A stretch of 63,880 bases of DNA, the filler included, from a bacterium (GTDB lineage: Bacteria; UBA9089; CG2-30-40-21; SBAY01): NCBI GenBank assembly GCA_040757115.1. It is 5 parts of 5 records of this genome, joined end to end, with 100 filler letters (N's around TTAATTAATTAA, not from the genome) between each part and the next. Parts side by side here need not be neighbours in the genome. Positions count along the whole stretch, not along the records: positions 1 to 13,361 come from JBFLYA010000107.1; positions 13,462 to 26,821 come from JBFLYA010000108.1; positions 26,922 to 39,773 come from JBFLYA010000109.1; positions 39,874 to 52,609 come from JBFLYA010000110.1; positions 52,710 to 63,880 come from JBFLYA010000123.1. One strand, written 5' to 3'. The notes under the pieces were generated by a model, which searched no databases, had not been told where the DNA came from, and saw nothing but the letters and a program-made list of their open reading frames with translations. The translations under genes were made by a program, and so were the position numbers. Below, in pieces: positions 1-63,880 of the stretch. How positions within the stretch are numbered: position 1 is the first letter of the stretch; each line of letters opens with the position of its first letter.

Positions 1-125
1 GTTTTCCACAATCAATTTCTACCTATTTCTATAAATTTCAATCTATTTCTATTATCTTATCTCCATATCACTCTTATCTCCTTATCCCCTTTCTTACACT
101 TTTGATATATAGCCTGAACGGTTAC
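1..125 (-). mobile_element. GTAAC-TIR miniature element, family A (partial, cut by window start)
   Basis: Matches 61651-61775 and the reverse complement of 41237 onward; ends in the TIR CTGAACGGTTAC. Confidence 0.9.
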
Positions 126-164
126 AGTTTAAGATTATTATTCTTCCCTTACCTTAAAAATGTA

Positions 165-446
165 GTAACCGTTCACCGCAGAGACGCAGAGGAACAGAGA
201 AGATATGGAAATAAATCAGATAACAGAAAAGATTATTGGTGTAGCCATTGAAATACTTATGACCTGCTTGCCGAATGTTCAGCCGGCAAGCCAGATTTGT
301 TAATCCATCCCTGATTTTCATCAGGGCAAGTTTAATGTTGTTGGACTCAAGAGCTTGCACTGATGAAAATCAGGGATGTTAAGCCTATCGTAAATAAATT
401 TTAATTTTCTTCTCTGCGTCTCTGTGTCTCTGCGGTGAACGGTTAC
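165..446 (+). mobile_element. GTAAC-TIR element, family C, carrying an internally deleted GxxExxY gene remnant
   Basis: TIR GTAACCGTTCAC...GTGAACGGTTAC; CCGCAGAGACGCAGAG arms; encodes [17 protein letters not shown]; near-identical to 21369-21661; no TSD. Confidence 0.85.
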
Positions 447-576
447 AAATTCGTGAATCGTGTCCGTTTTCCGTGTCCGTAATTAGGCTGAAGGTTTTTT
501 CTTCCTGTTGTCCTCTGCCTTCTGCCCTCTGTATTTATCCGTGTTAATCCGTGTTGATCAGTGGCTGAATAATTAC
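447..576. mobile_element. Right part of a family B element fused to the preceding family C element
   Basis: Matches ~1269-1398; ends CTGAATAATTAC. Confidence 0.8.
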
Positions 577-613
577 TGTAAATTCAATATTCAAAGTCTA
601 TCTTCAACTACCG

Positions 614-949
614 TTAGACCCCAACTCCTCTTGCAGATTGAGACAGAACTTCAGCAACCCAGGAACCGATATTTTTTCTATCCTTTTCAGCTGCAAGAAT
701 GACTTTGCGATGTTCCTCAGGTGATAGTCTAATAGTGAACCGTCCAGAAAATGGTTTTTCAGGTTTCTCTCTTCGCTCCACACAAAAAGACAAATAATCC
801 TCAATCGAATCCTCAAATGCCTTACGCAATTCCTCAACTGTTTTTCCTTGAAAAGTGATAACATCTCGAATGTTTATTACCTCTCCATGAAAAATATTAG
901 ATTCACTATCAAACTCGACCTGACCCAAATAACCCTTATATTCCATCAT
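614..949 (-). CDS. hicB: HicB-family antitoxin
   Basis: MEYKGY..VEFD....IFHGEV..IRDVITFQG..V.EL..AF..S..DY...PEKPFSGRF.IRLSP signature; overlaps hicA stop. Confidence 0.9.
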   Translation of the reverse strand: MMEYKGYLGQVEFDSESNIFHGEVINIRDVITFQGKTVEELRKAFEDSIEDYLSFCVERREKPEKPFSGRFTIRLSPEEHRKVILAAEKDRKNIGSWVAEVLSQSARGVGV

Positions 950-1200
950 AGTTCCACCTCTGATTCGGTTAAAAATCGACGCATGGAAATCACTGTTCCT
1001 TTATCTGTTTCTTTCCGGGGATGTGGTCGATGAAACACAGCACGCACTCCCTTGAGAGCAATACGTATTCGTGAGCCTCGCCCTTCACTGATTTCCGCCC
1101 CACAAGCCACAAGCAGACTTTCAATATCAGCCCATGGGATATTAGCACGGACTGGCTCTGTAAAAATGGCTTGTAAAGTTTTTCTATGTTTTGATTTCAT
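946..1200 (-). CDS. hicA: HicA-family toxin (mRNA interferase)
   Basis: W.DIE.LL...GA...EG.GSR...FHRPHP motif; directly upstream of hicB. Confidence 0.9.
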   Translation of the reverse strand: MKSKHRKTLQAIFTEPVRANIPWADIESLLVACGAEISEGRGSRIRIALKGVRAVFHRPHPRKETDKGTVISMRRFLTESEVEL

Positions 1201-1228
1201 AACCGTCCTATAACTTAATTACTCAAAC

Positions 1229-1398
1229 GTAACTATTCAGCCATAGATGGACACAGATGAAACATTGAAAATTCGTAAATCGTGTCCGTCTTCCGTGTCC
1301 GTAATTAGGCTGAAGTTTTTTTCTTCCTGTTGTCCTCTGCCTTCTGTCCTCTGTATTTATCCGTGCTAATCCATGTCCATCAGTGGCTGAATAGTTAC
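1229..1398. mobile_element. GTAAC-TIR element, family B (complete)
   Basis: GTAACTATTCAGCCA...TGGCTGAATAGTTAC; homologous to 5840-6026, 12833-13238 and 62523-62842. Confidence 0.85.
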
Positions 1399-1402
1399 AA
1401 GT

Positions 1403-1685: not shown

Positions 1686-1690
1686 TTTAC

Positions 1691-1768: not shown

Positions 1769-4199
1769 ATGTTAAGAAAGATTTTATATCTATCAATTTT
1801 TATTTTTTTGTTACCATTTTTAGCCTTTGGTGAGGAAACCACTTCCTCAATTATCACGGTGGGTAAGGTCTACACAAAATGGAAAGGATTTTTAAACATA
1901 CCTTTCTGGACAGATGCAAGTGTTTCTTTTAATGGAATTTCCCCGGTTACTTTACCCAAAGAGGTAACTGCTTTTCAAATCGGGTTAGATTGGCGTGGTG
2001 AAAATGAGACTCGCGCATCTCAAAAATGCACCATTATTACCCGCATTGAGGCAGAAACTTATCCTAACTCAGGCAAGTGGACACTTTTATTTGAAGAGGC
2101 AAATGAAATGATAGGTCGAGGAGGAGTAATTGAGGAAAGACCTATTGTAACCAGAAATATCCCGCAGGAAAAACCAGAAGTAAGGTATAAAATTACGGTT
2201 AGAGCGACTATGCCGCTTGGGCAAGAACAAAAACCTGAGATTACTTATCTAACCGTGCTCCTTACCTCAAAGGCATATACGACTTACACCTCTATCCCGA
2301 TTCTTCCTATAATGCTCCTTCATGACCCTAATGGTGATGAGAGTTACATTACTCTACAACCAAATACCTCCATTTCTCACTTATTAAGTATTAATTTAGC
2401 CGGGCTGGAGGCAAAAATAGAAAACCAACAAAAGGTGTTTTTTGAAACACAAAAGGCTAAAATAGAAATTAATCCTATGTCAGAAAATACAGTAATGATA
2501 AATTTCATCTCTAAAGAGGCGATAACCTCCGCTGTTTCAAAAGACCCTTGTTTAATTGGAACGGGTCTTGGAGATACTTATGTGGTGATTAAAGATTTAC
2601 CCATAAAATTTAACTTCTCAAAGGCATTTACTCCATTAGGGGAAGAGAAAAGGGCTTTTTCCTGCTGTATCGTTAGTCCACAGGAGGCTGGACTTTCTCC
2701 AGAAAGAGGATTTGATGTTGTCTTAATACCAGCCGCAGCTTTGCGTTCTTACGATAAAGAGTGTCCAATCTTTGGCAATTGGGGACAATTAGGATTAGAT
2801 GACCAGATGAGACAACAATTGATAGAGATGAATATAGGGTGGGATAATATGGTCTCTCCAGAGGAAAAAGATGATGTTATTGACCTCGGCGAGGGATATT
2901 TAAACTTTAAAGACCAAACAAGAAAAGATTACACTCAAGTCTATTTGAACAAGGTTAGTTTTTTTTCAGAGATGGTCATAGAGCCCTATTTTGCAACAAC
3001 AGCAGGGATTCCTGTCTCAAGAGATAAGATGCTTACCGCAATCATCTTAAATGAATCACCTGTAACTAAAAGTGTTCCAAAGGATAATTTAATCGTTACT
3101 TTAGAAGATGACGATAGACAAAATATCCCGGGTGATTTCTTTACTTATCAGTTCTATCTGGATAAACGATTTGGCTCCTTATTAGTTATTACTAAAGATG
3201 ATAAAACTAAACCTCAGACTTTAGATTCACTTTATACCCGAAGTTTCTCATCTAACCCTAAGGAATACTGGACCGAAGACTTAAAAATCATACCCGTAGA
3301 GGTGTCAATTAAGGGATTAGTTACTTCGACTACTGGTGAAGGAATTGGTAGTGTTAGCTTAGAGGTAAGGTTAGATGATAAGGTGGTAAAAGAGGTGATG
3401 ACTAAAGCAGGAGGCACTTATACCATTGATGGATTAATACCAGGGAATAAGTATGTTTTGATACCCAATATCGCCGGCTATCAGTGTAAAACAATAGAAA
3501 TAGAACCTTTTTCGCATAATGAATTAATCCGTGAAATAAATGTAGTTTTAGAACCAATTGTGAAGGAGGTGTTACCAGAAGAAAAAGTTATAGTTGAAAT
3601 ACCACCTGCACCATTAATTCCTGAGCCTGTTCCTCCTAAACCTGAGATAGTGGCTGAGAAAGAAATATCTGAATTGTTAGTTAACAGCAATTTTTCATCC
3701 GCATTAGATGGCTGGAAATTAGTTAAGATTGGTGCAGGCAAAGAGATGTATGCCAGCGTCATCAGGAATGATTTTACCTATCCGTATGCCTTAGAGATTA
3801 AGCGCACAGGTTCTAACCGTGTTCGAGGTGAAATGGGCGTCCGACAGGTATTAAATAAGGATGTCTCTGGATATACTCAATTAGNNNNNNNNNNNNNNNN
3901 NNNNNNNNNNNNNNNNNNNNNNNNNNNNNNNNNNNNNNNNNNNNNNNNNNNNNNNNNNNNNNNNNNNNNNNNNNNNNNNNNNNNACGGGTTTTTATACGC
4001 TCCAAAGATTAATTATCCAGATATAGGGGAAAGGATTGAGCAGGATAAATGGATTATCTACACCTCAAATAATTTATTGGAGTGGACACCCAAACCCAAA
4101 CTGATTAAAGAGATAAAACTATCTGGTAGTGGTTGGGGATTTCACAGTAAGATTGCTAATGTAAAATTGATGGGGGAAAAAGGTTCTGAGCATAGATGA
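1769..4199 (+). CDS. Large secreted hypothetical protein (carboxypeptidase-regulatory-like domain, Pro-rich linker, possible carbohydrate-binding C-terminal domain); spans an N gap
   Basis: Signal peptide; 'IKGLVTSTTGEGIGSVSLEV...T...GTYTIDGL.PG'; after the gap another frame reads GFLYAPKINYP...GSGWGFHSKIANVKL..* to 4199, so the supplied 4012 end is probably a gap artefact. Confidence 0.6.
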
Positions 4200-5841: not shown

Positions 5842-6026
5842 AGGGCAGAGGGCAGAAGGCAGAGGGCAGAGGGCAGAGGGCAGAGGGCAGAAGGCAGAGG
5901 GCAGAAGGCAGAAGGCAGAGGACAACAGGAAGAAAAAACCTTCAGCCTAATTACGGACACGGATACCGGACACAATTTACGAATTTTCCGTGTTTCATCC
6001 GTGTCTATCTGTGGCTGAATAATTAC
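5840..6026. mobile_element. Family B element, one end missing, with expanded AGAGGGC/AGAAGGC heptamer tract
   Basis: ~11 heptamers at 5840-5920; ends CTGAATAATTAC. Confidence 0.8.
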
Positions 6027-8081: not shown

Positions 8082-10020
8082 GGAGAGCGTTGCAAATAAG
8101 ATTGGGATTTAATGCAGGTTTTATTTAGTAATGGAGAGATAGAACTTGCCAAAGTAGGAAAAGAGATATAAAATTGGAACTTGACATCAAAGGAGGGTGT
8201 AGAATTAGGGAGTTATGGATTTGGTAGTAGCGTGAGAGGGCCTAATGTTTTGGATAAAATAAGTCGATAAAGATAACAGAAGTAAGTCTAAATTCTTTAG
8301 GAGGGGAGTAATGAATACAAAAGAGGACTTCTGTTATCAGGGTATTTCATTTCAGTCCGAAGAGGATAGTGGCGTTGGGGGAGGACTGGAAATCAAACAA
8401 GATGGGAATCGATTTTGTGTCATAGGCCGAGGGTTTAATATCGGCTGGTTACTGGATACTGCTTCGAATCGAAAGGCGGTGTTAGTGTTTATCCGGCTAT
8501 TTCGAGACAAGGCAGGCAAACCATTATATACCCATCAGGAACTTTCAGAGATAGTGGGGAGTAAGAATCGGCAGGCTTCAAGCAGTCATATGGAACAATT
8601 TCATGCTTGTGGTGGCGATATATTGAAGTTTCTGAGTCGTCGTCGCAAGGTAGATGGAGAGGTAGTAGGAGCAGTATTATCAGAGTTAAAGAAGGATCCT
8701 TTAAAGGCAAAGAATGAATTATGTCAGGAAGTGAAGAGGAGGCTTAGTAGGGATGACCTGACGGAGATGAATATTCAAGCAGCGTTAGAGCAAATACCGT
8801 ATGAACCATTATACCGTAGGTTAAGAGAGCAGTTGAACAAAGGGGAGGTGCATTATCAAGAGGACTATCTTTTGCAGGAGGTAATGAATAGTTTTAGTTC
8901 CTGTGGAGGCGAGCAGGGAGGTATGATGCTGGGAGAAGTGGAAGGGATGAAGGTATCAGATCCGACAGGGATACGGAATTTGTTAACGCCGGAAGTAAGT
9001 TTATCCTGCATCAACAAATCGTTGCAGATAGTATGTTTTGTGATGGCCTTGTATCATCATGAGGTTGGATTGTCTGTTCTGGGTAAATGGTTGAAGGTTC
9101 ATAAGACTACGATATTACGATGGATACTTGGGTTATCATTGGAGCTTTGGCCAATAGTGTGGAGTTGGGTAAAGAAGGGGGTGAAGACGAGGAAGGTCTA
9201 TATAGATGAGAAATGGCTGAAGATTCAAAAGAGATGGTATTATTGGTTTGTCGTTTTGGATGAGGGGACAGGTTTACCGATAATAACTTCACTTTTAGCA
9301 TCTCGAGGGGTATGGGCATGTCGGTGGATAGGCTATCAGATGAAGAAGTTGGGTCAAATTCCTAAAGCAATTATCACGGATGGAATGGTAACATATAAAT
9401 ATCTCAAGGAGATCTTAGGAAAAGATGTTGAGCATCTGTTGTGCCATTTTCATTATCAACAGGTTACCAGCCGATGGGTCAAAGAGAACTTCAAAGGGAA
9501 TGAACAACTTATTAAGCAGCGTAAGAAAGAGTTGAAGGAGGTCTTACAAACTAACGATAAGCGGACGGTCAAGCGGCGTTTTGAGAAACTTAGAGGAATG
9601 GCCGAAATAATGGGGATACAAAGATGGGTTTCGAATATGGAGGAAGCATTGCCGAAGCTTTTACCTGCTATTGGAAGCAAGAAATTTCCTAAGACCAATA
9701 ATGCGATAGAGCGATTCTTTAGAGATTTTAATCAATTTTACAAAAGAAGGTGTGGATTCTTTTCTGTCATGAGTGCCAGGAGAGAAATCATCAGTTTTTT
9801 GGTAATGTACTTATTTCTTCAGCAGCCAGGTAGTTGCAAGGCTCCACTTGAAATGATTATGCCAGAAGTAAAAAATATGCCTTTCTATCAACTGGTTAAC
9901 AATCCACTGGGTTGCCTGTTAGGACTACAAAATGTCAAGTTAAATAAAAATATGGCAGAAAATAGAACAAAACAATGCCTCGGACCTTAAATATAACGCC
10001 AAACCTTATGCAACACTCTC
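8082..10020 (+). mobile_element. Insertion sequence with imperfect TIRs
   Basis: Left GAGAGCGTTGCAAATAAG (8082); right revcomp GAGAGTGTTGCATAAG (10020); encloses a transposase; no TSD; extra end-like GAGGGTGTTGAAAAAG at 8048. Confidence 0.75.
8311..9990 (+). CDS. DDE transposase (IS6/IS240-like core with Mutator-like CxxH motif; family uncertain)
   Basis: HTH (VHKTTILRW), YIDEKW, IITDG, LCHFH, TNNAIERFFR. Confidence 0.85.
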   Translation: MNTKEDFCYQGISFQSEEDSGVGGGLEIKQDGNRFCVIGRGFNIGWLLDTASNRKAVLVFIRLFRDKAGKPLYTHQELSEIVGSKNRQASSSHMEQFHACGGDILKFLSRRRKVDGEVVGAVLSELKKDPLKAKNELCQEVKRRLSRDDLTEMNIQAALEQIPYEPLYRRLREQLNKGEVHYQEDYLLQEVMNSFSSCGGEQGGMMLGEVEGMKVSDPTGIRNLLTPEVSLSCINKSLQIVCFVMALYHHEVGLSVLGKWLKVHKTTILRWILGLSLELWPIVWSWVKKGVKTRKVYIDEKWLKIQKRWYYWFVVLDEGTGLPIITSLLASRGVWACRWIGYQMKKLGQIPKAIITDGMVTYKYLKEILGKDVEHLLCHFHYQQVTSRWVKENFKGNEQLIKQRKKELKEVLQTNDKRTVKRRFEKLRGMAEIMGIQRWVSNMEEALPKLLPAIGSKKFPKTNNAIERFFRDFNQFYKRRCGFFSVMSARREIISFLVMYLFLQQPGSCKAPLEMIMPEVKNMPFYQLVNNPLGCLLGLQNVKLNKNMAENRTKQCLGP

Positions 10021-10073
10021 GCTTTTATCCCATTAAAGTTTTTTGAAATCTCCTTTACTTCAAGAACATTCAT
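10021..10073 (-). pseudogene. livG: 5' stub of branched-chain amino-acid ABC ATPase truncated by the IS
   Basis: Reads MNVLEVKEISKNFNGIKA just after livM and ends exactly at the IS right end. Confidence 0.75.
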
Positions 10074-12216: not shown

Positions 12217-12385
12217 GTAAGCGTTCAGGGTGTAATGAAGGAAAAATGGAAAAGTTGGGGAAAAGGGGAAATTATTTATTTATTTCCAGTCTCCGTATAT
12301 CCAGTTTAAAATCAGCAAAGTTGATTAACAAACCCATCTTTTTATCTACTGCTTTCAGATAGGATCTTACCTGTGCATAATACTT
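12217..12385. pseudogene. Solo TIR followed by the C-terminal fragment of a GxxExxY gene (minus strand)
   Basis: GTAAGCGTTCAG at 12217; minus frame YYAQVRSYLKAVDKKMGLLINFADFKLDIRRLE. Confidence 0.65.
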
Positions 12386-12544
12386 CTGATTTTATTGATT
12401 AGTATTTCTCTTTCTTCCTAAAAAAGTATTGACAAGCGTTGAGGGTATATATTATACTATCTGAAAGGGTATCGGCGTTTGAGGTAAATGAAGGTATTTA
12501 ATAAAGGGAAAAAGGAATTATAATCAAGGATCTTTCGAAAAGAT

Positions 12545-12832: not shown

Positions 12833-13238
12833 GTAACTATTCAGCCATTGATTGACACGGATTAGCACAGATAAATAGCAGAAGGCAGAGAGCAGAAGGC
12901 AGAGGACAGAAGACAGAGGTCAGAGGCGGGTTGTCCCCCGCTGGCGGGGGTTAGGGGGTGGTTGTCCCCCGCTGGCGGGGGATTAAGGGGGTGGAAATCT
13001 CTTCCACTGGCAGAGAATCAAGAAGGATAGAAAATAAAAGTTAGAAGGAGAAACGCTCATGAACCGTTGGTTCACAAATGAAGATGAAAATAGGTTTGAT
13101 GGTTCAGGTGAAATCAGGCTGAAGCCTGCGGCTGCCAGCCTTCCCGAGTCCCGAACCCCGAGTCCCGAGTCCCGATTTTCAGAAGAACCCTTCAACCTGA
13201 TTACGGACACGGAAAACGGACACGATTTACGAATTTTC
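12833..13238. mobile_element. Composite family B element with nested CCCCCGCTGGCGGGGG palindromes and a junction-bounded payload
   Basis: GTAACTATTCAG at 12833; B sequence resumes ~13188; interrupted at 13239 by family A. Confidence 0.75.
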
Positions 13239-13361
13239 GTAACCGTTCAGGCTATATATCAAAAGTGTAAGAAAGGGGATAAGGAGATAAGAGTGATATG
13301 GAGATAAGATAATAGAAATAGATTGAAATTTATAGAAATAGGTAGAAATTGATTGTGGAAA
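13239..13361 (+). mobile_element. Family A element (partial, contig end)
   Basis: Matches the first 123 nt of 41237-41474. Confidence 0.9.
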
Positions 13362-13461
13362 NNNNNNNNNNNNNNNNNNNNNNNNNNNNNNNNNNNNNNN
13401 NNNNNTTAATTAATTAANNNNNNNNNNNNNNNNNNNNNNNNNNNNNNNNNNNNNNNNNNNN
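13362..13461. other. Artificial contig linker (N44-TTAATTAATTAA-N44); also 26822-26921, 39774-39873, 52610-52709
   Basis: Identical all-frame stop linker in four gaps. Confidence 0.95.
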
Positions 13462-14864: not shown

Positions 14865-15410
14865 GTAACTATTCAGCATACCAAGCAAGTAGGAAGTAGG
14901 AAGTAGGAAAGGGGGAAAATACTTCATACTATTTTACTCTTAATTGATTTGATTAAACCTATAAGCATCCTACTCACTTCTTCAGATATATCCCAAATGG
15001 ATTGAAAATCTGGCAGATAATTAAGATCTTTAGATAGAATTAGATAATACCTTTCCTACTCTCCTACTTCCTACTTTCAGGGAAATCTCCCCCATTTCAC
15101 TGACGCATTACCTTAGTTCTTCAAGAGAGCCCTGGCTTATATTATAGGCATTTAACTTATTCTTTATGCCTTGTTTCTTAAAACCTTCTGCAATATTTGC
15201 TGGAATAGAAACAGCCGCTTTGCACATCTGTTGCACCAATCCATATTTTTCTTCAGTGGGGAAGTTTTTGGTTATTTCGTATATTCTTATCACTAAATGA
15301 TGGCTTTTTTGCCATACTACAAGTTGTCTAAAATCATCTAACTTCTCATTCATTTTCTTCCCCTTTCCTACTTCCCTACTCTCCTACTTTCCTACAGGGT
15401 GAATAGTTAC
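14865..15410. mobile_element. GTAAC-TIR element carrying a four-helix-bundle gene between AAGTAGG/CCTACTT heptamer arms
   Basis: GTAACTATTCA...TGAATAGTTAC; perfect 8-bp TSD ACTTTTCT. Confidence 0.9.
14924..15353 (-). pseudogene. Four-helix-bundle protein (TIGR02436/23S-IVP/Avd-like) interrupted by a 61-bp insertion
   Basis: FRQLVVWQKS..L...IY.IT..FP.EEKYGL..QM..AAVSIPANIAEG; continues RYYLILSKDLNY...MLIGLIKS after removing an insert flanked by TACCT repeats (15048, 15109). Confidence 0.85.
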
Positions 15411-20062: not shown

Positions 20063-20581
20063 ATGAGGGGTGAAATAAAAATTAATAAAAACAAAGCCGT
20101 TTTCCTGGACCGCGATGGTGTGATTAATAAAAAAATAATTGGCGATTATGTAAAATGCTGGGAGGAATTTGAATTTCTACCAGGTGTTAAACAAGCAATA
20201 AAATTGTTGAATCAATCTCAATTTAAGGTGATTGTAGTTACCAACCAGGCATGTATTGGTAAAGGAATCATCAAAGAAGAACAACTACAACAAATTCATC
20301 AACAGATGCTCAATGAACTAAAGGATTATGGCTCTTCTATAGACGCAATTTATTACTGCCCACATCTTACTGAAGATAATTGTAATTGTAGAAAACCCAA
20401 ACATGGAATGTTAGAATTGGCAGATAGAGACTTTCAGATAGATTTTAAAAACTCATGGTTGATTGGAGATGAAGATAAAGATATAGAAGCAGGCAAAAGG
20501 GTAGGTTGTAAAACTTGCTATGTAACTCATGAGAAAGGATTACTTCAAATCGTAAAAGAGATTATAGGAGAGAGAAGTTAA
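20063..20581 (+). CDS. gmhB: D-glycero-D-manno-heptose 1,7-bisphosphate phosphatase (HAD IIIA)
   Basis: FLDRDGVIN, VTNQ, CPH...CNCRKP, IGD..KD; the upstream part of the supplied ORF is repeat-derived. Confidence 0.85.
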   Translation: MRGEIKINKNKAVFLDRDGVINKKIIGDYVKCWEEFEFLPGVKQAIKLLNQSQFKVIVVTNQACIGKGIIKEEQLQQIHQQMLNELKDYGSSIDAIYYCPHLTEDNCNCRKPKHGMLELADRDFQIDFKNSWLIGDEDKDIEAGKRVGCKTCYVTHEKGLLQIVKEIIGERS

Positions 20582-20598
20582 AAGGAGGACAGAGGGAA

Positions 20599-20835
20599 AT
20601 GAACTTATGGGAATCATTAGCCCTGGTAGGCACAGCGGCGACAATATTAGGGGTATTTTTGACTGTCTATGGGGTAGTGAATAATAAAACACTAAAGAAT
20701 GAAACCAAATTAACACGAGAAACAATAGAAGAAGAGGGTAAGTTGACACGAGAGATGATTAAAGAAACTACTGAATATTTAGGTAGGCTAATTGTGGCTG
20801 ACGGAGATAGAACCCGTCTGGCTATGAGTAAGTAG
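20599..20835 (+). CDS. Small membrane-anchored coiled-coil protein, copy 1
   Basis: AGGAGG RBS, N-terminal TM helix; three near-identical copies. Confidence 0.75.
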   Translation: MNLWESLALVGTAATILGVFLTVYGVVNNKTLKNETKLTRETIEEEGKLTREMIKETTEYLGRLIVADGDRTRLAMSK

Positions 20836-21004
20836 AAAAGTTATCATACAGCAAATATAGAGAGAAGAAAGGTTATCTTTCTTTGAACCTGAAATTTGAA
20901 ATTTATTCGGGATTTGGTGTCTGGAATTTGGAATTTCTGGGTGAATACCACCATCCGTCCAGTTAAAGATGTAGGTAAAGATTAGAAAAGGAGGATACAG
21001 GGAA

Positions 21005-21307
21005 ATGAACTTATGGGAATCATTAGCCCTGGTAGGCACAGCGGCGACAATATTAGGGGTATTTTTGACTGTCTATGGGGTAGTGAATAATAAAACACTA
21101 AAGCATGAAACCAAATTAACACGAGAAACAATAGAAGAAGAGGGTAAGTTGACACGAGAGATGATTAAAGAAACTACTGAATATTTAAGCAGGTTGAGTA
21201 AAGAAACTACTGAATATTTAAGCAGGTTGAGTAAAGAAACTACTGAATATTTAGGTAGGCTAATTGTGGCTGACGGAGATAGAACCCGTCTGACTATGAG
21301 TAAGTAG
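21005..21307 (+). CDS. Small membrane-anchored coiled-coil protein, copy 2 (two extra 11-aa repeats)
   Basis: As copy 1 plus two 33-bp in-frame repeats KETTEYLSRLS. Confidence 0.75.
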   Translation: MNLWESLALVGTAATILGVFLTVYGVVNNKTLKHETKLTRETIEEEGKLTREMIKETTEYLSRLSKETTEYLSRLSKETTEYLGRLIVADGDRTRLTMSK

Positions 21308-21368
21308 AAAAGTTATCATACAGCAAATATAGAGAGAAGAAAGGTTATCTTTCTTTGAACCTGGAATT

Positions 21369-21661
21369 GTAACCGTTCAGGGGGTAATTTACCGCAGAGA
21401 CGCAGAGGAACAGAGAAGATATGGAAATAAATCAGATAACAGAAAAGATTATTGGTGCAGCCATTGAAATACTTATGATCTGCTTGCCGAATGTTCAGCC
21501 GGCAAGCCAGATTTGTTAATCCATCCCTGATTTTCATCAGGGCAAGTTTAATGTTGTTGTACTCAAGAGCTTGCACTGATGAAAATCAGGGATGTTAAGC
21601 GTATCGTAAATAAATTTTAATTTTTTCTCTGCGTCTCTGTGTCTCTGCGGTGAACGGTTAC
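21369..21661 (+). mobile_element. Family C element with GxxExxY remnant
   Basis: TIRs; TSD CTGGAATT/CTGAAATT (7/8); empty site present in the paralogous spacer at 20889. Confidence 0.92.
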
Positions 21662-21775
21662 CTGAAATTTGAAATTTATTCGGGATTTGGTGCCTGGAAT
21701 TTGGAATTTCTGCGTGAATACCACCATCCGTCCAGTTAAAGATGTAGGTAAAGATTAGAAAAGGAGGATAGGGAA

Positions 21776-22024
21776 ATGAACTTATGGGAATCATTAGCCC
21801 TGGTAGGCACAGCGGCGACAATATTAGGGGTATTTTTGACTGTCTATGGGGTAGTGAATAATAAAACACTAAAGCATGAAACCAAATTAACACGAGAAAC
21901 AATAGAAGAAGAGAGTAAGTTGACACGAGAGATGATTAAAGAAACTACTGAATATTTAGCTAAATATTTAGGTGATCTAATTGTGGCCGACGGGGGTAGA
22001 ACTCGTTTAGCTATGAGCAAGTAG
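21776..22024 (+). CDS. Small membrane-anchored coiled-coil protein, copy 3
   Basis: As copy 1 with a 4-aa insertion and diverged 3' end. Confidence 0.75.
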   Translation: MNLWESLALVGTAATILGVFLTVYGVVNNKTLKHETKLTRETIEEESKLTREMIKETTEYLAKYLGDLIVADGGRTRLAMSK

Positions 22025-22131
22025 AAAAGTTATCATCCAGAGAGAAGAAAGATTATCTCGATGAATTCTCTATTGGCAAATTCCAAAGGTAGAATCAAAA
22101 GTCTTTGACTACAAAGAGAGGAGAAAATTCA

Positions 22132-23822: not shown

Positions 23823-23896
23823 ATTGGGAGATAAAGAAAAAAAACTATTTACCCAATAAAATCATTTTCTGTGGCTGAACGATTACAAAAAGGTTA

Positions 23897-38293: not shown

Positions 38294-38399
38294 AAAAAAT
38301 TTTTCTTGCTAATATAGCCTGATAATATTATAATATATTCAGGTGGTTATTGTCAACCACCTTTTGCAGAAAATTAAAAGTAGTAACAAGAGGTGAATA

Positions 38400-42570: not shown

Positions 42571-42793
42571 GTAACTGTTCACCGCAGAGACGCAGAAAAA
42601 AAATTAAAATCTATTCACCCGAGACAGAAATTCCCTTTTTTTTGTGCATTTTGGGTCTTTCGTTGTTTATTAATCTTTTAATACGGACTTTCGACTAACT
42701 GTTTTTAAGCCTTTTTAAACACCGAAAAACGCAAAAGATATTTTCCTCTCTGTTCCTCTGCGTCTCTGCGGTAAATTACCAGCTGAACAGTTC
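42571..42793. mobile_element. Family C element
   Basis: GTAACTGTTCAC...CTGAACAGTTC; perfect TSD GTATCAGC; core shared with 36088. Confidence 0.88.
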
Positions 42794-42802
42794 GTATCAG
42801 CG

Positions 42803-46070: not shown

Positions 46071-46428
46071 CGGTGGTGTCTGAAAATAACTCTAATAGTG
46101 AAATCTATGCAGATTTGGTGTCCAAAAGGGATTTCCTCCAAAGAGCAAAATGCAAAAAGCAAATATAAAAATTACATATCAAAATGTAAAATTATCTCTT
46201 TCCTTTCAGCGTTAAAATACTTGAAGCAAAGATATTACCAAATTCCTCCAACTCTTTGAGAAACCCTGCTATTTCCTTTTTGAAATTTGATTTGTAATTT
46301 TGCATTTTGATATTTATATTTGATATTTAATATTTGATATTTAATATTTATTTGTTGTCTCCCTCAAATCCTATTTTGCAGAACCCTATACACTATTTTA
46401 ACCTTTATGCTAGATTAAGACACCACCC
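46071..46428. mobile_element. GGTGGTGTCT-ended element containing an inverted partial family E copy (to 46388)
   Basis: GGTGGTGTCT...AGACACCACC; 46280-46388 is the reverse complement of ~23422-23530. Confidence 0.65.
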
Positions 46429-46440
46429 TAAACACGTCCG

Positions 46441-47415
46441 TTAGCCCACTAATCTTTTTGTTACCTCTTCTACCACCTTTTTTTCTACATCAGATAATGA
46501 GCCTTCAATGACACAACCAGCCGCCCGCATGTGTCCACCACCACTAAAAATCTTAGCAATTTCACTTACACTAAAAGCACTCTTTGACCGCAAATTTACC
46601 TTAATCCTATCATGTCCTAAATCTCTAAAGAGTAAAATTACTTCTACTCCTTTGATTGACCTGAGTTGGTCTATTATTCGTTCTGGTTCGATTTCACTGG
46701 CTGGGTCTGTTTCCTTAAGCATTTTTTGTGTAATGTGAGCTATAATTATTTTCCCATCCAGGTTTGTTTTTAAACTATCTAATATCTTACCTAATAACTT
46801 AACAGAACTGGCGGTGTTCGCCTCATATATTTGAGAGGCAACTTCATTAGGGTCAATTCCACAGTTTAACAATTCCGCAACTATTTTATGTGAAGTAGGC
46901 GTAGTATTTACCTGTTTAAAGCTACCCGTATCAGTCATAATGCCCACATACAAAGGTAGGGCTAAATTATAATCTAATTTAAAATCCATTGCTTTAATGA
47001 CCTGATAGATTTGTTCAGCACAAGCACTGGCGGTTGTATTAATATAATTATAATCACCTATGCCCGGGGAATCTGGATGATGGTCGATATTGATAATAAG
47101 CGGGACCTGTTTAATTAGACCCACAACCTTACCTACCCGCTCAAATTGATTGCAATCTAAAACTATTCCCACATCAAATTTATATCTCTCATACTCTGGG
47201 GTGTAAATAAGAATCTTGTCACATTCTGGCAGGAAATGATAATTTTCCGGTGGTGGGTCTTCGTTAATAATCGTTACCTTCTTGCCTAATTTTTGAAGCA
47301 GGATGGCTGTGGCTAATTGGCTTCCAATCGAATCTCCTTCTGGACGGATATGAGCAGTAATAAGGAAATTATCCTCTTTTTGCAAGACATTCACAATGGA
47401 AGAGAGTATCTCCAT
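46441..47415 (-). CDS. nrnA: DHH/DHHA1 oligoribonuclease/pAp phosphatase
   Basis: H..PEGDSIGS, NIDHH, TDTGSF, GGGH..AAG. Confidence 0.92.
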   Translation of the reverse strand: MEILSSIVNVLQKEDNFLITAHIRPEGDSIGSQLATAILLQKLGKKVTIINEDPPPENYHFLPECDKILIYTPEYERYKFDVGIVLDCNQFERVGKVVGLIKQVPLIINIDHHPDSPGIGDYNYINTTASACAEQIYQVIKAMDFKLDYNLALPLYVGIMTDTGSFKQVNTTPTSHKIVAELLNCGIDPNEVASQIYEANTASSVKLLGKILDSLKTNLDGKIIIAHITQKMLKETDPASEIEPERIIDQLRSIKGVEVILLFRDLGHDRIKVNLRSKSAFSVSEIAKIFSGGGHMRAAGCVIEGSLSDVEKKVVEEVTKRLVG

Positions 47416-50028: not shown

Positions 50029-50265
50029 GTAACCGTTCAGGTTATACATTAGAAGTGTAAGAATGGAGATAAGGGGATTGGGGAGATGTGGAGATTATAA
50101 ATTTCCTGGATAATTGAGCAAAATGGTTATGGAAAAAGACTAACTTTTATAACCCCTAAACCAAACGAGCCTCCAACCCTAATCCTTTCACCAAAAACTC
50201 CTAAATATATCCCCTTATCTCCTTTATCTCCATATCTCCTTTTCTTACACTACCTGAACGGTTAC
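50029..50265. mobile_element. Family A' element between nusA and infB
   Basis: Perfect 14-bp TIR; perfect TSD GAAAATAT. Confidence 0.92.
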
Positions 50266-52296: not shown

Positions 52297-52479
52297 GTTT
52301 CAATCCTTGTTTTAATGGAAGTTGGGTTGTTACGATGGAAACGAGATTACGAGGAAACCCCAGCAGCTCCGTTTCAATCCTTGTTTTAATGGAAGTTGGT
52401 CGCTAACTTATCATCGCAATGCTGTATTTCTGGTATATTCTTGTTTCAATCCTTGTTTTAATGGAAGTTGGTCGCTAAC
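52297..52479 (-). CRISPR. Orphan mini CRISPR array: 3 x 37-bp repeats, 2 spacers (37 and 35 bp)
   Basis: Repeat (minus) GTTAGCGACCAACTTCCATTAAAACAAGGATTGAAAC with canonical ATTGAAAC end; degenerate copy at 52297; no cas genes in window. Confidence 0.88.
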
Positions 52480-52749
52480 GGCTATTTGCTACATAGCATA
52501 ACATCGTGCACCCTATTTTAATACAAATTTATAGCAGGACATCGTGCACTCTCACCCCATGGGGTGAGCGAAATTCTAATCCTCAAAAATAGCAGGACAT
52601 CGTGCACCTNNNNNNNNNNNNNNNNNNNNNNNNNNNNNNNNNNNNNNNNNNNNTTAATTAATTAANNNNNNNNNNNNNNNNNNNNNNNNNNNNNNNNNNN
52701 NNNNNNNNNCAGTTTAATGGCACTTCAGTAACAAAAATTCAAATATAAC

Positions 52750-52784: not shown

Positions 52785-53057
52785 GTAACCGTTCAGGCTA
52801 TATATCAAAAGTGTAAGAAAGGGGATAAGGAGATAAAAGTGATATGGAGATAAGATAATAGAAATAGATTGAAATTTATAGAAATAGGTAGAAATTGATT
52901 GTGGAAAACAACAAATTGGTCACTGGTCAATGGTCATTGACTAATGACTAATTTCTATAAATTTCTATTAGTTTCTATTAATTTCAATTTTTTTAATAAT
53001 ATCTCCCTATCTCCTTAATCTCCACATCTCCTTTTGTTACACCACCTGAACGCTTAC
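52785..53057 (+). mobile_element. Family A element with a 35-bp TGGTCAN/TGACTAA insert
   Basis: TIRs; perfect TSD ATAAAATT. Confidence 0.92.
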
Positions 53058-54922: not shown

Positions 54923-56200
54923 ATGAAATATAAATCCACTTTCCTTTTAACTTTTGCTATTCTTTCAGGAATAATTATAGGCATTGCCATTTTATTTCGT
55001 CCTGATATATATGTTCTTGCTGGTAGTTGTTTCGCCATAATCACTCTAATACTCATCTTTATTCGGCCATATTTTGGTATTATTATTTATTATGCGACTC
55101 TTTTTATGCTCCCGGAGGAATTAGCAGGAACTCCTGCTCCCTTGATAATATGTTTAATCACAACCTTATTTTGCCTTAAAGATGTTATTAAAACTCGAGG
55201 ATATAAATTTGTCTTTGGGAAACAGAGTTATTTCCTATCAGGATTATGGTTAATGATGGTAGTATCCGTGGTTTTTGCCTACGAAAAAAGCCATTGTTGG
55301 AAACCATTATTAAGTTTTAGTAAAACATTTATATTTTATTTCGTAACAATTAATCTTATAAGGACAAAGAAAGATTTTAAAATACTACTCTGGGCAATCG
55401 CAGTTATCTTTGGCATTTTAGCCTTAAAGTGTAATGTTCATTGTTTTCTATTTGGACCTGGACGCGTTGCCGGTGCTGGGGGTGATAATAATCATTTTGC
55501 CTTAGCGTTAATAATGGCATTACCTTTTAGTATTTATCTATTCTTTTCAGAAAATCTACTCCTTAAAAAACTCCTTTTAGGAATAATCTCATTGTGTATC
55601 ATTGCAACGGTTATTCTTACTTTTTCAAGAGGTGGTTTTATTGGATTAATTGGGGTATTAAGTTTAATATTTTTAAAGGCAAGAACTAAGGCATTAGCTC
55701 TCTATGGAATTGTATTTTTAGTTCTATTGTTCATAGTTTCAATACCTTCAGGATATATAGAAAGACTAAACACTATCTTAGAGTATCAGAAAGATGATTC
55801 TGCTATGGGAAGGATATACGCCTGGAGAGCAGGTGGACAGATGATATGGGAACGACCACTAATAGGAATAGGATTGGGTAATTTCGCTCCCTTAGCCCAT
55901 ACCTATGATTCCCGATTAGATAAATCTATGGAGGCTCATAACTCATTTATCCATTTAGCGGGTGAGTGTGGTTTGATTTCATTATTACTCTTTATTATGT
56001 TAATATCTACTTCGATGATAGATTCATATAGAATCAGAAGAAATATAGATGAAAGATTTTCTAAGATAACAGTTCCTGCTTGTAAAATAATAGAGGTAAG
56101 TCTTGGTGGATATGTGTTAGCGGGTAGTTTTCTAAGTGAGGTAAATTTTGAGCTTGTTTATCTTTTATTTGCATTGAGTGTGATACTTAAACGATTGTAA
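54923..56200 (+). CDS. O-antigen ligase/polymerase-family (Wzy_C) protein
   Basis: D.N.FA, TFSRGG, SAMGR...W, P..G.G.GNF, AHNSFI. Confidence 0.85.
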   Translation: MKYKSTFLLTFAILSGIIIGIAILFRPDIYVLAGSCFAIITLILIFIRPYFGIIIYYATLFMLPEELAGTPAPLIICLITTLFCLKDVIKTRGYKFVFGKQSYFLSGLWLMMVVSVVFAYEKSHCWKPLLSFSKTFIFYFVTINLIRTKKDFKILLWAIAVIFGILALKCNVHCFLFGPGRVAGAGGDNNHFALALIMALPFSIYLFFSENLLLKKLLLGIISLCIIATVILTFSRGGFIGLIGVLSLIFLKARTKALALYGIVFLVLLFIVSIPSGYIERLNTILEYQKDDSAMGRIYAWRAGGQMIWERPLIGIGLGNFAPLAHTYDSRLDKSMEAHNSFIHLAGECGLISLLLFIMLISTSMIDSYRIRRNIDERFSKITVPACKIIEVSLGGYVLAGSFLSEVNFELVYLLFALSVILKRL

Positions 56201-56622
56201 GCGTTCAGCAGTCATCTATCAGTTGTCAACTGATGGCTGACCGCTGGGTGTATGTAAAATTTGTGGGTAAAAAATATTGAGGAATATTCATCTTTTTGCC
56301 GATATAAAGAAATAGATGAAATTCAATGCGAAAATTACAAATTCCAAGCACCAAATCTCAAATAAATTCCAAATTCCAATTTCCAAATAAGTTTCAAATT
56401 CCAAAGATTATATGACAACGAGAGGAATTTATTTAGATTTCTCAATAATTGAAGAAAAAATCTTTTTCTTGTCTTGTTTGGAATTTTGAATTTTGGTCAT
56501 TGAAATTTATTTGTAATTTGGTATTTGTGATTTGGAATTTTGTGATTTTCAATTGATTTAACCGTTAATTCAGACGGGTAAATAGTTACCCATAAATTTT
56601 ACACGCACCCCTGACCGCTTAC
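56197..56622. mobile_element. 52-bp minimal GTAAC-TIR hairpin element with a nested 365-bp element
   Basis: GTAAGCGTTCAG...CTGACCGCTTAC; perfect TSD AAACGATT. Confidence 0.88.
56246..56610. mobile_element. Nested GGGTG-TIR element with AAATTCC/GGAATTT heptamer arms
   Basis: 25-bp TIR (22/25) GGGTGTATGTAAAATTTGTGGGTAA; perfect 9-bp TSD CTGACCGCT. Confidence 0.88.
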
Positions 56623-60306: not shown

Positions 60307-60512
60307 GTAACTATTCACCGCAGAGACGCGGAGACACAGAGAAAAAATTAAAATCTATTGGCTATACGCTTAATTCCATTTCTAATAGACCTGGACCTAA
60401 TGTCTTATGTATTTCAATTGCTGTACCAATAATTTTTTCTGTTATCTGATTTATTTCCATGTTTTCTCTGTTCCTCTGCGTCTCTGCGGTGAATTACTAT
60501 CTGAACGGTTAC
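60307..60512 (-). mobile_element. Family C element with internally deleted GxxExxY gene
   Basis: Minus strand [27 protein letters not shown] fused to [10 protein letters not shown]; TIRs; no TSD. Confidence 0.88.
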
Positions 60513-61301: not shown

Positions 61302-61510
61302 AAGTTTTCGCTCCTTTTCCCCTGAAAATAGGAAGTAGAAAGTAGAGAGTAGAAAGTAGAAAGTAAAGGAAACATCACTCCTCACGCCCATCTCCTTACC
61401 TCCCACCTTCTATCTCCTACCTACTATTTTCATCCTCATTTGTGAACCCACGGTTCATGAGCGTTTCCCCTGAAAATACATTCGCAGATTTCGCAGATTA
61501 CACAGATTTT

Positions 61511-61864
61511 AGAACGGTTCACTTTTGTTTGAAATCTTGTAAGCGTTCAGGTGGTGTAACAAAAGGAGATGTGGAGATTAAGGAGATAGGGAGATATTAT
61601 TAAAAAAATTGAAATTAATAGAAACTAATAGAAATTTATGGAAATTTGTTGTTTTCCACAATCAATTTCTACCTATTTCTATAAATTTCAATCTATTTCT
61701 ATTATCTTATCTCCATATCACTCTTATCTCCTTATCCCCTTTCTTACACTTTTGATATATAGCCTGAACGGTTACGAAATCTTGTGGTTAGAAAATGGAC
61801 TGTGAATGTTTACAAATGTATATCCGAAACAAATCATAGGGAAAACGATAAAATGAACCGTCCC
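61511..61864. mobile_element. GGGACGGTTC-TIR element hosting a family A element
   Basis: AGAACGGTTCA...TGAACCGTCCC; TSD CAGATTTT; sister copy at 62569-62703. Confidence 0.8.
61539..61775 (-). mobile_element. Family A element
   Basis: TIRs; perfect TSD GAAATCTT. Confidence 0.92.
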
Positions 61865-61913
61865 CAGATTTTTAATTTTTCCTCCCTCGCTGGCGGGGAG
61901 ATTGTTTGATAGA

Positions 61914-62513
61914 TTATCCTGACAGAGCACTCCATAAATCCATCTTAAGTTGGGATATGGATTGAAATAATATCCCGTTCATCCCAATTTTACTTGCCGA
62001 GGCAATATGTTCTTTTATATCATCGATATAAATACATTTTTCTGCCTCAACATTTGCCCTTTTTAACGCTTCATAAAATATCTCTTTAGCTGGTTTGCTA
62101 AATCCTACCTGATATGATAAAATATACTCATCTATAAAATTTAAGACATCAAATTTAGCCATAGCGAATTCAAAGTGTATTTCGTTGGTATTTGACAATA
62201 AAAAGAGTTTATATCTACCTCTAAGACTCAATAATATCTCTTCAATCCCTTCATTTAGCCAGAAAATATCTTGCCAGATTTGTTTAAACCCTGTCAAGGA
62301 AATATTTAATTTAAGTCTATTTGATACCTTTTTAAAAAAATCCCTTGTTGAAATCTTTCCTTCATCATACAATCGCTCTAATCCAGAGGTAAATATTATC
62401 TCATAAACTTGTTGTGGTGAAAATCTGGATATTTGAGATAATTTTCTACAGATGATATTATGGTCAAAATTTAAGATGACATTGCCTAAGTCAAAGATTA
62501 TTAATTTAATCAT
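61914..62513 (-). CDS. HAD-family phosphatase (YihX-like)
   Basis: IIFDLGNV, LLSNTN, KP, YIDD; start moved to MIKLII. Confidence 0.88.
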   Translation of the reverse strand: MIKLIIFDLGNVILNFDHNIICRKLSQISRFSPQQVYEIIFTSGLERLYDEGKISTRDFFKKVSNRLKLNISLTGFKQIWQDIFWLNEGIEEILLSLRGRYKLFLLSNTNEIHFEFAMAKFDVLNFIDEYILSYQVGFSKPAKEIFYEALKRANVEAEKCIYIDDIKEHIASASKIGMNGILFQSISQLKMDLWSALSG

Positions 62514-62522
62514 AGTTGTAAT

Positions 62523-62842
62523 GTAACTATTCAGCCACAGATGGACACGGATGAAACACTGAAAATTCGGGACGGTTCCTTTTATCGTTTTTCCTATGAT
62601 TTTTGTTGGAAATTGGAAATTAGAAATTGGGCTTTTGTCTCTCTCCCTAATTTCCAATTTCTAATTTCAATCCGCAAGCTTTCAAACAAAAGTGAACCGT
62701 CCCTAAAATTCGTAATCCGTGTCCGTAATTAGGCTAAAGGTTTTTCCGCCTGTTGTCCTCTGCCTTCTGCCCTCTGCCCTCTGCCTTCTGCCCTCTGTAT
62801 TTATCCGTGCTAATCCGTGTTAATCAGTGGCTGAATAGTTAC
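62523..62842. mobile_element. Family B element with nested GGGACGGTTC element (62569-62703)
   Basis: Outer TIRs without TSD; inner TSD GAAAATTC/TAAAATTC. Confidence 0.85.
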
Positions 62843-63499
62843 GACTAAAGTAAATATTTTATCCACTTCTTCTAAACTATTTACGACCAAATCGGCACAA
62901 GAGAAATCCAGTCCTTGAGTAAACTGGTTTGGAACAGCGATACATTTCATTTTAGCCGCTTTTGCTGACATTACACCTGTTAGTGCATCTTCTAACACCA
63001 GGCACTCTTGCGGACTAATGTTTAATTTTTCTGCGGCTAATAAGTAAATATCAGGATTTGGCTTACCGTATTTGACCTCTTCTCCAGAAACAATTACTTC
63101 AAACTGCTCAACGATGCCTAATTTATTAACAATCAATTCAATAAATCGTCTTTTGGAAGATGAGGCAATGGCTTTCCTTATTCCGATTTCATTTAATAGA
63201 TGAAGGAGCTTAAAAAATCCAGGCATAGGTTTTATATTTTGTGCCAGAAGTCTTGTATAAATCTCTTCTCGCTCTTCTAAAAGCTTTATTGCTGGTTCCT
63301 CCAATTCAAGTTCTTCTTTGAATATCGTTAAACTTTCAATCGGGAGTCTTCCCATCAATTTTTGTTTAAGCGGTAGGGTAAAGCATTTACCTCTTTTTGC
63401 GGCTACCTGTTTCATTGCCTCAGAATATAAAGGCTCGGTATCAACCATTAGCCCATCCATATCAAAAATAACGGCTTTAATGGAGTAGTTTCTTTTCAT
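62810..63499 (-). CDS. HAD-family phosphatase (CbbY/beta-PGM-like)
   Basis: IFDMDG..VDTE, ASSS, GKPNPDIY, LEDA..GV; C-terminus derived from the family B element. Confidence 0.88.
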   Translation of the reverse strand: MKRNYSIKAVIFDMDGLMVDTEPLYSEAMKQVAAKRGKCFTLPLKQKLMGRLPIESLTIFKEELELEEPAIKLLEEREEIYTRLLAQNIKPMPGFFKLLHLLNEIGIRKAIASSSKRRFIELIVNKLGIVEQFEVIVSGEEVKYGKPNPDIYLLAAEKLNISPQECLVLEDALTGVMSAKAAKMKCIAVPNQFTQGLDFSCADLVVNSLEEVDKIFTLVVTIQPLINTD

Positions 63500-63528
63500 T
63501 AGTTTCCCTGTCTAAAGTTTCACCATTT

Positions 63529-63880
63529 GTAAGCGTTCAGCCACAGAGGCACAGAGTTCACAGAGAATTAAGGAAATTAACCACAAATGCACACGAATTA
63601 ACCTCTGACATCCCATAAATGTAGTGCGAACCTTATTGCTTTTTCATAAATAGGTTCCTCTTTTGGGGAGAGCGATAGCAAGAAGAACTTTAATGTAAAT
63701 ATCAAAATGCAAATATCAAAATTACAATGCAAAATGCAAAAATACTTGTAAATTAACAAAGTAGCTGGAGAATATTTTGATTTTTGATTTGTAATTTTAC
63801 ATTTTGATGTTTGATTTTTAATTTATTTTATGGTATTCCAGAAAAGTGGAAGTTAATTTTGCAAAAACCATTAGGTTCGC
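63529..63880. mobile_element. Family D element (runs off window) with a degenerate family E insert in its central palindrome
   Basis: Matches 33684 up to GCGAACC; insert ends TTTTGCAAAAACC before TAGGTTCGC. Confidence 0.8.

Follow-up and report, generated by a model that had tools for sequence, protein, structure and literature searches.

Our analysis concerns a stretch of 63,880 nucleotides (hereafter the window) that comes from a groundwater metagenome and is assigned to a bacterium of the lineage UBA9089; CG2-30-40-21; SBAY01 (assembly GCA_040757115.1). Its intergenic regions are densely populated by short elements that share 12-bp inverted ends of the form GTAASYRTTCAS and are in many cases flanked by 8-bp target duplications. 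We propose, with a probability of roughly 80%, that these elements are non-autonomous derivatives of the IS66 family of insertion sequences (IS) and, more precisely, of its ISBst12 group, i.e. MITEs (transposable elements of miniature size with inverted repeats) along with slightly longer, transposase-less cassettes that carry passenger genes. A DDE transposase of the ISBst12 type, whose gene would lie at another place in the genome, would bind the 12-bp ends (GTAA-S-Y-R-TTCA-S) and would insert any DNA lying between two such ends into AT-rich targets, with 8 bp being duplicated. A trans-acting DDE transposase had already been put forward in the original prediction, which was made from the sequence alone; the shared ends, the 8-bp duplications and the mobility of the elements are borne out by the data below, whereas the trans action of an IS66-type enzyme in this organism and the sufficiency of 12 bp for recognition are inferred.

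A common terminus with target duplications

The window is made up of five assembled pieces, joined by linkers (44 N, TTAATTAATTAA and again 44 N) at 13362–13461, 26822–26921, 39774–39873 and 52610–52709, so that features spanning a linker are not true neighbours; a separate run of 100 N lies inside the window at 3885–3984. A heterocystous cyanobacterium, which the heptamer repeats could suggest as the source, was discarded as a candidate, given that the relatives proved to be small MAGs (metagenome-assembled genomes) from a different lineage and that the DNA stems from groundwater; NusA gave no phylum either, its best matches being 57% identical sequences from Firmicutes. When searched on both strands with at most one mismatch, the GTAASYRTTCAS terminus has 49 matches in the window, compared with a mean of 2.39 and a maximum of 7 in 100 dinucleotide-preserving shuffles. 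Three of the 49 (at 17421, 36953 and 51087) resemble chance matches, each being located within an ordinary coding gene, and all others represent ends of intergenic elements, just as originally claimed. This corresponds to a density of approximately one element per 2.6 kb in the window, the figure for a 4.7-Mb relative (G001) being about one per 6 kb. Exact termini in G001 amount to 773 + 757, as against 3 + 2 for a control with the pattern reversed.

Flanking 8-bp repeats were scored for 47 candidate pairs of plus and minus ends (at most two mismatches per end, 30–1500 bp apart). Ten pairs show identity at 8/8 positions and one (21369–21661) at 7/8; the other 36, mostly non-cognate combinations, do not exceed 5/8. 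At 42571–42794, a perfect 8-bp duplication of GTATCAGC appears after a shift of one nucleotide, provided that the right end is taken to be one base shorter. All twelve duplications that had been listed beforehand were thus recovered, ten at 8/8, one at 7/8 and one after this shift. No end pair shorter than 91 bp was found in the window, and hence no '52-bp minimal' element as originally proposed.

Two features of the terminus itself may be added. Across 65 elements from the window and G001, a sample that was picked with the GTAASYRTTCAS pattern itself, terminus positions 6 and 7 are each split about 70:30 (C:T and G:A, respectively), with most ends reading CG or TA at these two positions and TG intermediates being few among the matches in the window. 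A different type of end, GTAATG(C/G)GTCAGTGAAATGGGGG followed by GTAGGAA-type arms, is present in the window at 15092 and 17103 as well as in G001 opposite 46071–46449, and could represent one more version of this terminus.

Recent mobility between two strains

G001 is the nearest genome, with 94–100% identity to the window in the main syntenic blocks and 86–89% in a few shorter ones. After chaining of syntenic hits, every junction between the window and G001 was inspected. Six window elements (14865–15410, 36088–36485, 38022–38293, 50029–50265, 56197–56622 and 61539–61775) turned out to have exact empty sites in G001, each of which holds a single copy of the 8-mer, with one single-nucleotide polymorphism in two cases; 36088–36485 is missing as a whole nested composite. 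Conversely, three insertions belong to G001 alone, with the window being empty: a class IV element (interior classes are described below) inside the 42571 element at window position ~42690 (duplication CTTTCGAC), a class III element near window position 38384 (duplication CAAGAGGT) and an insertion at window position ~20581 (duplication GAAGTTAA). The elements at 33684, 42571 and 60307 are common to both. Mobility is recent, with at least nine insertion differences between the two strains in ~64 kb.

Within G001, 25 of 49 distinct pairs that were sampled have perfect 8-bp duplications and two match at 7/8, whereas a shifted-flank control, which uses the next 8 bp outward, gave 0/49 perfect and one at 7/8. 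The duplicated 8-mers in G001 are ~75–80% A+T, against a background of 63.5%. The original prediction had suggested looking for empty sites and for duplications above chance; both are found, the former as six exact absences in a near-identical genome and the latter in G001 as well as across phyla (see below).

As to target choice, the same GAAAATTCG site in class II elements has been hit by three independent insertions or junctions (446/447, 13238/13239 and 62566–62775), and the duplicated 8-mers at many other sites resemble AAAATT, which hints at a preferred target for insertion. The strain comparison also brought up differences of other kinds. Two small insertions with other ends, one of 173 bp and one of 93 bp, are found only in G001, opposite window positions ~35250 and ~44555 (L045 and L047); the 173-bp element has TGTTGTGTTGAAC.../...GTTGAGTAAG-type ends, and these insertions suggest activity of one or more additional families of small mobile elements. 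Window 61329–61540 and its G001 counterpart (L088) contain tandem ~190-bp units, each with a hairpin of unit-specific heptamers and separated by ...GTTTCCCCTGAAAAT, with about five units in G001 versus about one or two in the window. At window 20581–22105, a small open reading frame (ORF) recurs two to three times together with the sequence around it, a class I element lying between the repeats, and the G001 version is much shorter.

IS66-family elements with the same ends

An 8-bp duplication combined with GTAA ends is the signature of the IS66 family in the ISfinder family table. Long, transposase-coding copies, for which a search had been recommended at the outset, do exist in relatives as complete IS with a single gene and carry the same 12-bp ends. 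One of them (L006 in genome G007) measures 1505 bp, ends in GTAACCGTTCAC on either side and contains an ORF of 468 aa that matches PF03050 (4.5e-39), DUF6444 and zf-IS66 and scores 270 bits, at a cut-off of 180, with the NCBIfam model transpos_IS66 (NF033517). The other (L005 in G008) measures 1737 bp, has GTAACTACTCAG as its two ends and contains an IS66-family ORF of 522 aa (PF03050, 1.5e-40). These ORFs all have DUF6444 and zf-IS66 in addition to DDE_Tnp_IS66. A further locus (L007) is a decayed copy, and yet another (L017 in G010) is a 579-bp deletion derivative in which a fragment of the transposase has been kept. ISDge4 of Deinococcus geothermalis, which was placed in the ISBst12 group of IS66 by its authors and was caught transposing, ends in GTGACTACTCAGCA and GTAACTGCTCAGCA, encodes a transposase of 449 aa and has a direct repeat of 8 bp (PMC12898284, published in 2026). 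Because IS66 elements with the same ends occur in relatives and because ISDge4 has an 8-bp repeat and ends nearly identical to those described here, we assign the elements to the ISBst12 group of IS66; the original prediction had considered the family unassignable, naming IS1595-, IS1- and IS256-type enzymes.

The distribution among 40 relatives was also determined. PF03050 (DDE_Tnp_IS66) occurs in 16 of the 24 genomes of the same phylum and in none of the 16 from outside it, and the terminus pattern is far above control in 21 of these 24 (at least 24 termini) and at control level in the 16 outsiders. A PF03050 match is present in 15 of the 21 terminus-rich genomes.

Occurrence across phyla

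A perfect end pair spaced by 140–170 nt was found in at least 120 stretches, compared with about 0.3 expected by chance, a figure obtained by arithmetic under uniform composition. The metagenome-assembled genomes (MAGs) that contain them are labelled Planctomycetota, Chloroflexota, Nitrospirota, Desulfobacterota, Bacteroidota, Cyanobacteria, Gammaproteobacteria, Acidobacteriota and Omnitrophica, among others. Among the matches listed, 118 elements could be assessed since both flanks are present, with 50 showing perfect 8-bp duplications and 11 matching at 7/8; in the corresponding control for these 118, none is perfect and no pair reaches 7. The interiors of these cross-phylum elements are very diverse. 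A 21-mer composed of terminus and arm of class I is found in MAGs labelled Syntrophobacteraceae, Desulfobacterales, Planctomycetota and Desantisbacteria, and the pairs at these loci include five perfect duplications out of 13, plus one at 7/8. In several other phyla (L237, L271, L303; L030, L042), the arms beside the terminus consist of tandem GGTTCA(G/C), i.e. the inner half of the terminus, and such repeats could provide extra transposase binding sites.

Interior classes and hairpins

When compared by blastn after removal of the 12-bp ends, the interiors fall into separate classes that have only the termini in common, or the termini plus arms of 30–55 bp; even within a class the cores often differ, with the arms beside the ends being the common part. 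Class I, which has CAGAGAC-type arms, comprises the elements starting at 165, 21369, 32724, 60307, 36278, 36088 and 42571. Class II, with CACAGATGGACAC arms, includes those at 1229, 36332 and 62523, and class III, with CACAGAGGCACAGAG arms, those at 27068 and 33684. Class IV has GGAGATA arms and consists of two subgroups (38022 and 50029; 41237, 52785 and 61539), and the elements at 14865, 56197 and 27175 stand alone. Clustering of 66 elements, i.e. those of the window and 49 distinct ones from G001, a sample biased by the way in which loci were fetched, yielded 15 clusters. All 19 elements tested form long hairpins (z from −5.0 to −17.4 versus shuffles), several being paired end to end throughout, which agrees with the hairpin interiors originally described. 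The accompanying notion of unrelated interiors is supported by the separate blastn classes and has to be qualified in that not all of them are arbitrary: at least class I and the four-helix-bundle class descend from cassettes with passenger genes.

Passenger genes and their inverted arms

The four-helix-bundle gene within 14865–15410 matches TIGR02436 (E 1.3e-24) and is broken after about residue 78. Class I elements begin with an ORF fragment, which in 60307–60512 corresponds to the first ~30 residues of GxxExxY proteins; the 32-aa ORF of the class I element at 21369 has no NCBIfam match. In G001, 38 matches were obtained with TIGR02436 and 75 with TIGR04256 (GxxExxY), many fragments being among them. 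One G001 locus (L209) represents the intact form of class I, in which a terminus, a CAGAGAC arm, a complete GxxExxY gene, the inverted arm and a terminus follow each other, and it is this locus, along with the element at 60307, that links class I to GxxExxY. Passenger-gene searches in G001 elements, which used hidden Markov models (HMMs) derived from G001's own full-length genes, detected a full GxxExxY gene in four end-bounded elements (464–563 bp, one with a perfect duplication) and fragments only, of either GxxExxY or four-helix-bundle genes, in ten truncated elements (176–407 bp), eight of which have perfect duplications. Because of this graded series from the full gene down to 176-bp fragments, at least two classes, i.e. 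class I and the four-helix-bundle class, are deletion derivatives of passenger-gene cassettes rather than of a gene for a transposase.

In both families, the full-length genes lie between arrays of short repeats that are inverted relative to each other and whose sequence varies from locus to locus. Comparing the 130 nt upstream of a gene with the reverse complement of the 130 nt downstream of the same gene, we found arm complementarity above the 95th percentile of cross-locus comparisons at 16 of 16 GxxExxY loci and 15 of 16 four-helix-bundle loci in G001. The payload of a cassette would then be a GxxExxY (PD-(D/E)XK-type) or four-helix-bundle gene between its own inverted arms of ~7-nt tandem repeats. 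Internal deletion would remove the passenger gene and leave the two arms, so that the short elements would be long hairpins of a class-specific repeat.

Individual elements of the window

Beyond the intact copies, the window contains nested, truncated and partial ones. Class I is represented by 165–446 (plus strand), which adjoins a class II fragment and takes the place of the left part of that class II element, by 21369–21661 (plus strand, with the 7/8 duplication), by 32724–32977 (plus strand) and by 60307–60512 (minus strand), which includes the first ~30 codons of a GxxExxY gene. The class I-related element 42571–42794 occurs in G001 with a nested insertion, and 36088–36485 is a nested composite (inner elements 36278–36485 and 36332–36422) with the outer duplication CAATTTTA.

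Class II includes the 170-bp element 1229–1398, right portions at 447–576 (terminus GTAATTATTCAG) and 5900–6026 (terminus at 6015–6026), and a left part at 12833–13361 (plus strand), which is interrupted at 13239 by a class IV element that is itself truncated by the end of the assembled piece. The class II element 62523–62842 carries a nested insert of ~166 bp (ends GGGACGGTTC...), its G001 version measuring 154 bp versus 320 bp in the window. The class III element 27068–27577 (duplication AAATTTGG) harbours the 260-bp element 27175–27434, which has variant ends GTATGTGTTTAG and its own duplication GAACCTTT; an assembled-contig joint from 27165 to 27434 skips 268 bases (260 + 8) and only shows that uninterrupted class III copies exist. 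The second class III element, 33684–33923, is flanked by TTATCAGT.

Class IV comprises 38022–38293 (duplication AAAAAATT), 50029–50265 (GAAAATAT), 52785–53057 (ATAAAATT), 61539–61775 (GAAATCTT) and 41237–41474, in addition to a right part at 1–125 (right terminus at 114–125) that is truncated by the start of the window. Outside these classes, the 546-bp cassette with the interrupted four-helix-bundle gene (14865–15410, minus strand) is flanked by ACTTTTCT, and the 426-bp element 56197–56622, with TTGGAAT-type arms, by AAACGATT. Three partial copies complete this inventory. At 12217–12420 (plus strand), a left terminus is followed by a C-terminal fragment of a GxxExxY gene (12275–12391, minus strand), its partner end not having been found; at 23875–23886 (minus strand), there is a right terminus, GTAATCGTTCAG, whose element could not be given a left end; and 63529–63880 (plus strand) is the left part of an element truncated by the end of the window. 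Near the end of an assembled piece, at 52371–52479, there is also a pair of CRISPR direct repeats, each matching Rfam CRISPR-DR7 with 40.8 bits.

Discussion

Several observations weigh against an origin of these elements from IS66. With respect to the enzyme, tblastn with three IS66-family transposases detected no such transposase in the window (best E = 0.7), a result that also upholds the initial statement that the elements contain no recognizable transposase remnant. In G001, ~765 elements face a single IS66-family transposase gene, which is split over two short contig ends, is preceded by a DUF2080 ORF and encodes an enzyme that is only 27% identical to that of L006; its ends, GTAATTGTTTAC and GTAACTGCTCAT, are each two positions off the MITE consensus. 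G001 is, however, a MAG of 770 contigs, and repeated IS copies may therefore be unassembled. Six of the 21 terminus-rich relatives have no PF03050 match, which is weak evidence either way since these are fragmented MAGs, and no 8-bp duplication is found at three IS copies with matching ends in relatives. With respect to the elements themselves, six of 17 complete ones in the window (165–446, 1229–1398, 32724–32977, 41237–41474, 60307–60512 and 62523–62842) have no duplication; as 41237–41474 faces 562 bp of other sequence in G001, some duplication-less elements can be taken to reflect adjacent deletion or recombination. An HMM search revealed no gene remnant in classes II, III and IV or in the 56197 element. 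Finally, GTAA-type ends are uncommon around the full passenger genes of G001: among 16 GxxExxY genes, only 4 are bounded by them, and among the 17 four-helix-bundle loci that were examined, none is.

The IS66-family enzyme of G001 has one further relative among the loci searched. On a contig of a MAG labelled Nanoarchaeota (L004), the start of a transposase gene that is 64% identical to the G001 enzyme is preceded by the GTAATTGTTTAC end; a search of related loci with the G001 transposase returned just this one fragment, which represents either transfer between lineages or a binning error.

The scarcity of GTAA ends around full-length passenger genes bears on an alternative in which the hairpin cassettes have their own way of spreading, e.g. 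through a GxxExxY nuclease that acts on the arms much like a homing or REP/RAYT-type system, with IS66-type ends being an occasional add-on. The locus-specific inverted arms around nearly all full-length genes of both families, the absence of GTAA ends from most full cassettes and the sheer number of GxxExxY and four-helix-bundle matches in G001 all speak for it. Two candidate boundaries of full four-helix-bundle genes were rejected at the same 17 loci, i.e. GTAA ends (one locus has a pair with two mismatches per end, without duplication and with an opposite end intervening, and does not count as bounded) and a GTAATGSGTCAGTGAAATGG-type end. As most full cassettes are without IS66-type ends, the arms belong to the cassette and not to the transposon, and cassettes also exist, and perhaps spread, without such ends. 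Yet the strain-specific insertions of this system that could be inspected all combine GTAA ends with an exact duplication of 8 bp, the footprint of staggered cleavage by a DDE enzyme; no strain difference was seen for an end-less cassette, with the window containing no full-length one to test; and in other phyla, the interiors found between the same ends do not have arms of this kind. Autonomous spread may apply to end-less copies; it does not explain the GTAA-ended insertions seen here, and as a general account of these elements we regard it as improbable.

The window's own candidate enzyme, a 559-aa DDE protein encoded at 8311–9990 and distantly related to IS6/IS240, IS256 and IS66, fares even worse. 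It is the sole transposase-like gene product of the window, scores above the cut-off with PF13610 (33.4 bits) and matches IS6 (5e-12), IS256 (1e-5) and IS66 (8e-4) transposases; a 71%-identical copy at another G001 locus (C212) indicates that it is mobile itself and present in both strains, and IS256-type enzymes generate duplications of 8–9 bp. Its own element (8083–10021), however, is bounded by inverted repeats of the form GAGAG(C/T)GTTGCA rather than by GTAA ends, the GTAA termini nearest to the gene (6015 and 12217) are wrongly oriented for bounding it, and the exact MITE ends are carried by elements that encode bona fide IS66-family enzymes, so that this protein is very unlikely to be what moves the elements. 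That another family with 8-bp duplications (IS1595, IS1, IS256 or ISL3) supplies the enzyme and that the likeness to IS66 ends is a coincidence might be argued from the fact that a family cannot be told from an 8-bp duplication alone and from the imperfectly matching ends of the single G001 gene, but seems hardly credible in view of the identical 12-bp ends of complete IS66-family elements in two relatives and the near-identical ends of ISDge4 (PMC12898284), although no search aimed at these other families was made in G001.

As derivatives of IS66, the window elements can be compared with several known systems. They agree with the ISBst12 group, as represented by ISDge4, in their ends (GTAAC-T-G/A-C/T-TCAG) and in the 8-bp direct repeat, and they differ from it in that ISBst12-type IS encode a single DDE transposase of ~450–520 aa, whereas window-type elements have no transposase, measure 90–550 bp, reach hundreds of copies per genome and have interiors made of hairpins or passenger genes. 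Bacterial MITEs are described as small, multi-copy, mostly intergenic elements with terminal inverted repeats and strong folding (PMC3542288; PMC3184786), and for the 'type II' MITEs of Anabaena sp. 90 it is reported that no IS with matching ends was found (PMC3542288). The window elements are similarly short, transposase-less and numerous, with terminal inverted repeats, duplications and exact empty sites; unlike such MITEs, including those of Anabaena as far as their description goes (the comparison being one of descriptions, not of sequences), they combine many unrelated interiors with one terminus, for which a matching IS family has been found.

Passenger genes lying between IS-type ends, as in four G001 elements (L209, L216, L224 and L225) and in 14865–15410 of the window, are reminiscent of mobile insertion cassettes, in which IS ends surround passenger genes in the absence of a transposase, as in MIC231 of Bacillus cereus. 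Here, in contrast, the ends are those of another IS family, and the passengers are GxxExxY or four-helix-bundle genes with inverted arms of their own. The intervening sequences of 23S rRNA genes also encode a four-helix-bundle protein, with the ORF lying within a long inverted-repeat stem as it does here; the copies described here are found outside of rRNA genes, however, and some of them have transposon ends and target duplications. REPINs and other REP–RAYT systems are likewise short, highly abundant intergenic hairpin repeats; REPINs are not known to produce target duplications and rely on a Y1 transposase, whereas the 8-bp duplications and IS66-type ends observed here indicate a DDE enzyme. 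MITEs, IS ends around passenger genes and ISBst12-group elements are therefore all kinds that are already known. A search of the open-access literature found no paper that ties MITEs to IS66/ISBst12, or GxxExxY or four-helix-bundle genes to such cassettes, although an earlier description is possible.

A more far-reaching idea, which we consider tentative and rather doubtful, is that GxxExxY and four-helix-bundle genes within complementary arms of ~7-nt repeats constitute a separate kind of hairpin-bounded cassette that has not been described before. The two arms would co-evolve such that the stem is kept, pointing to a function of the hairpin at the level of RNA or DNA; ISBst12-type ends would serve as a vehicle across phyla, and the hairpin MITEs would be the worn skeletons of such cassettes. 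If this were true, the intervening sequences of 23S rRNA genes that encode a four-helix bundle could be accounted for in the same way.

Overall, one of the densest small-repeat systems known to us can now be given the name of an enzyme family, and a 12-bp IS66-type terminus emerges as conserved across many bacterial phyla, with its cargo not being subject to such constraint. Movement of the elements is ongoing; short-read assemblies are interrupted by them, and they can cause the deletion of flanking DNA. Furthermore, two very common families of 'hypothetical' genes, GxxExxY and four-helix-bundle, acquire a genomic context that may aid in finding their functions.

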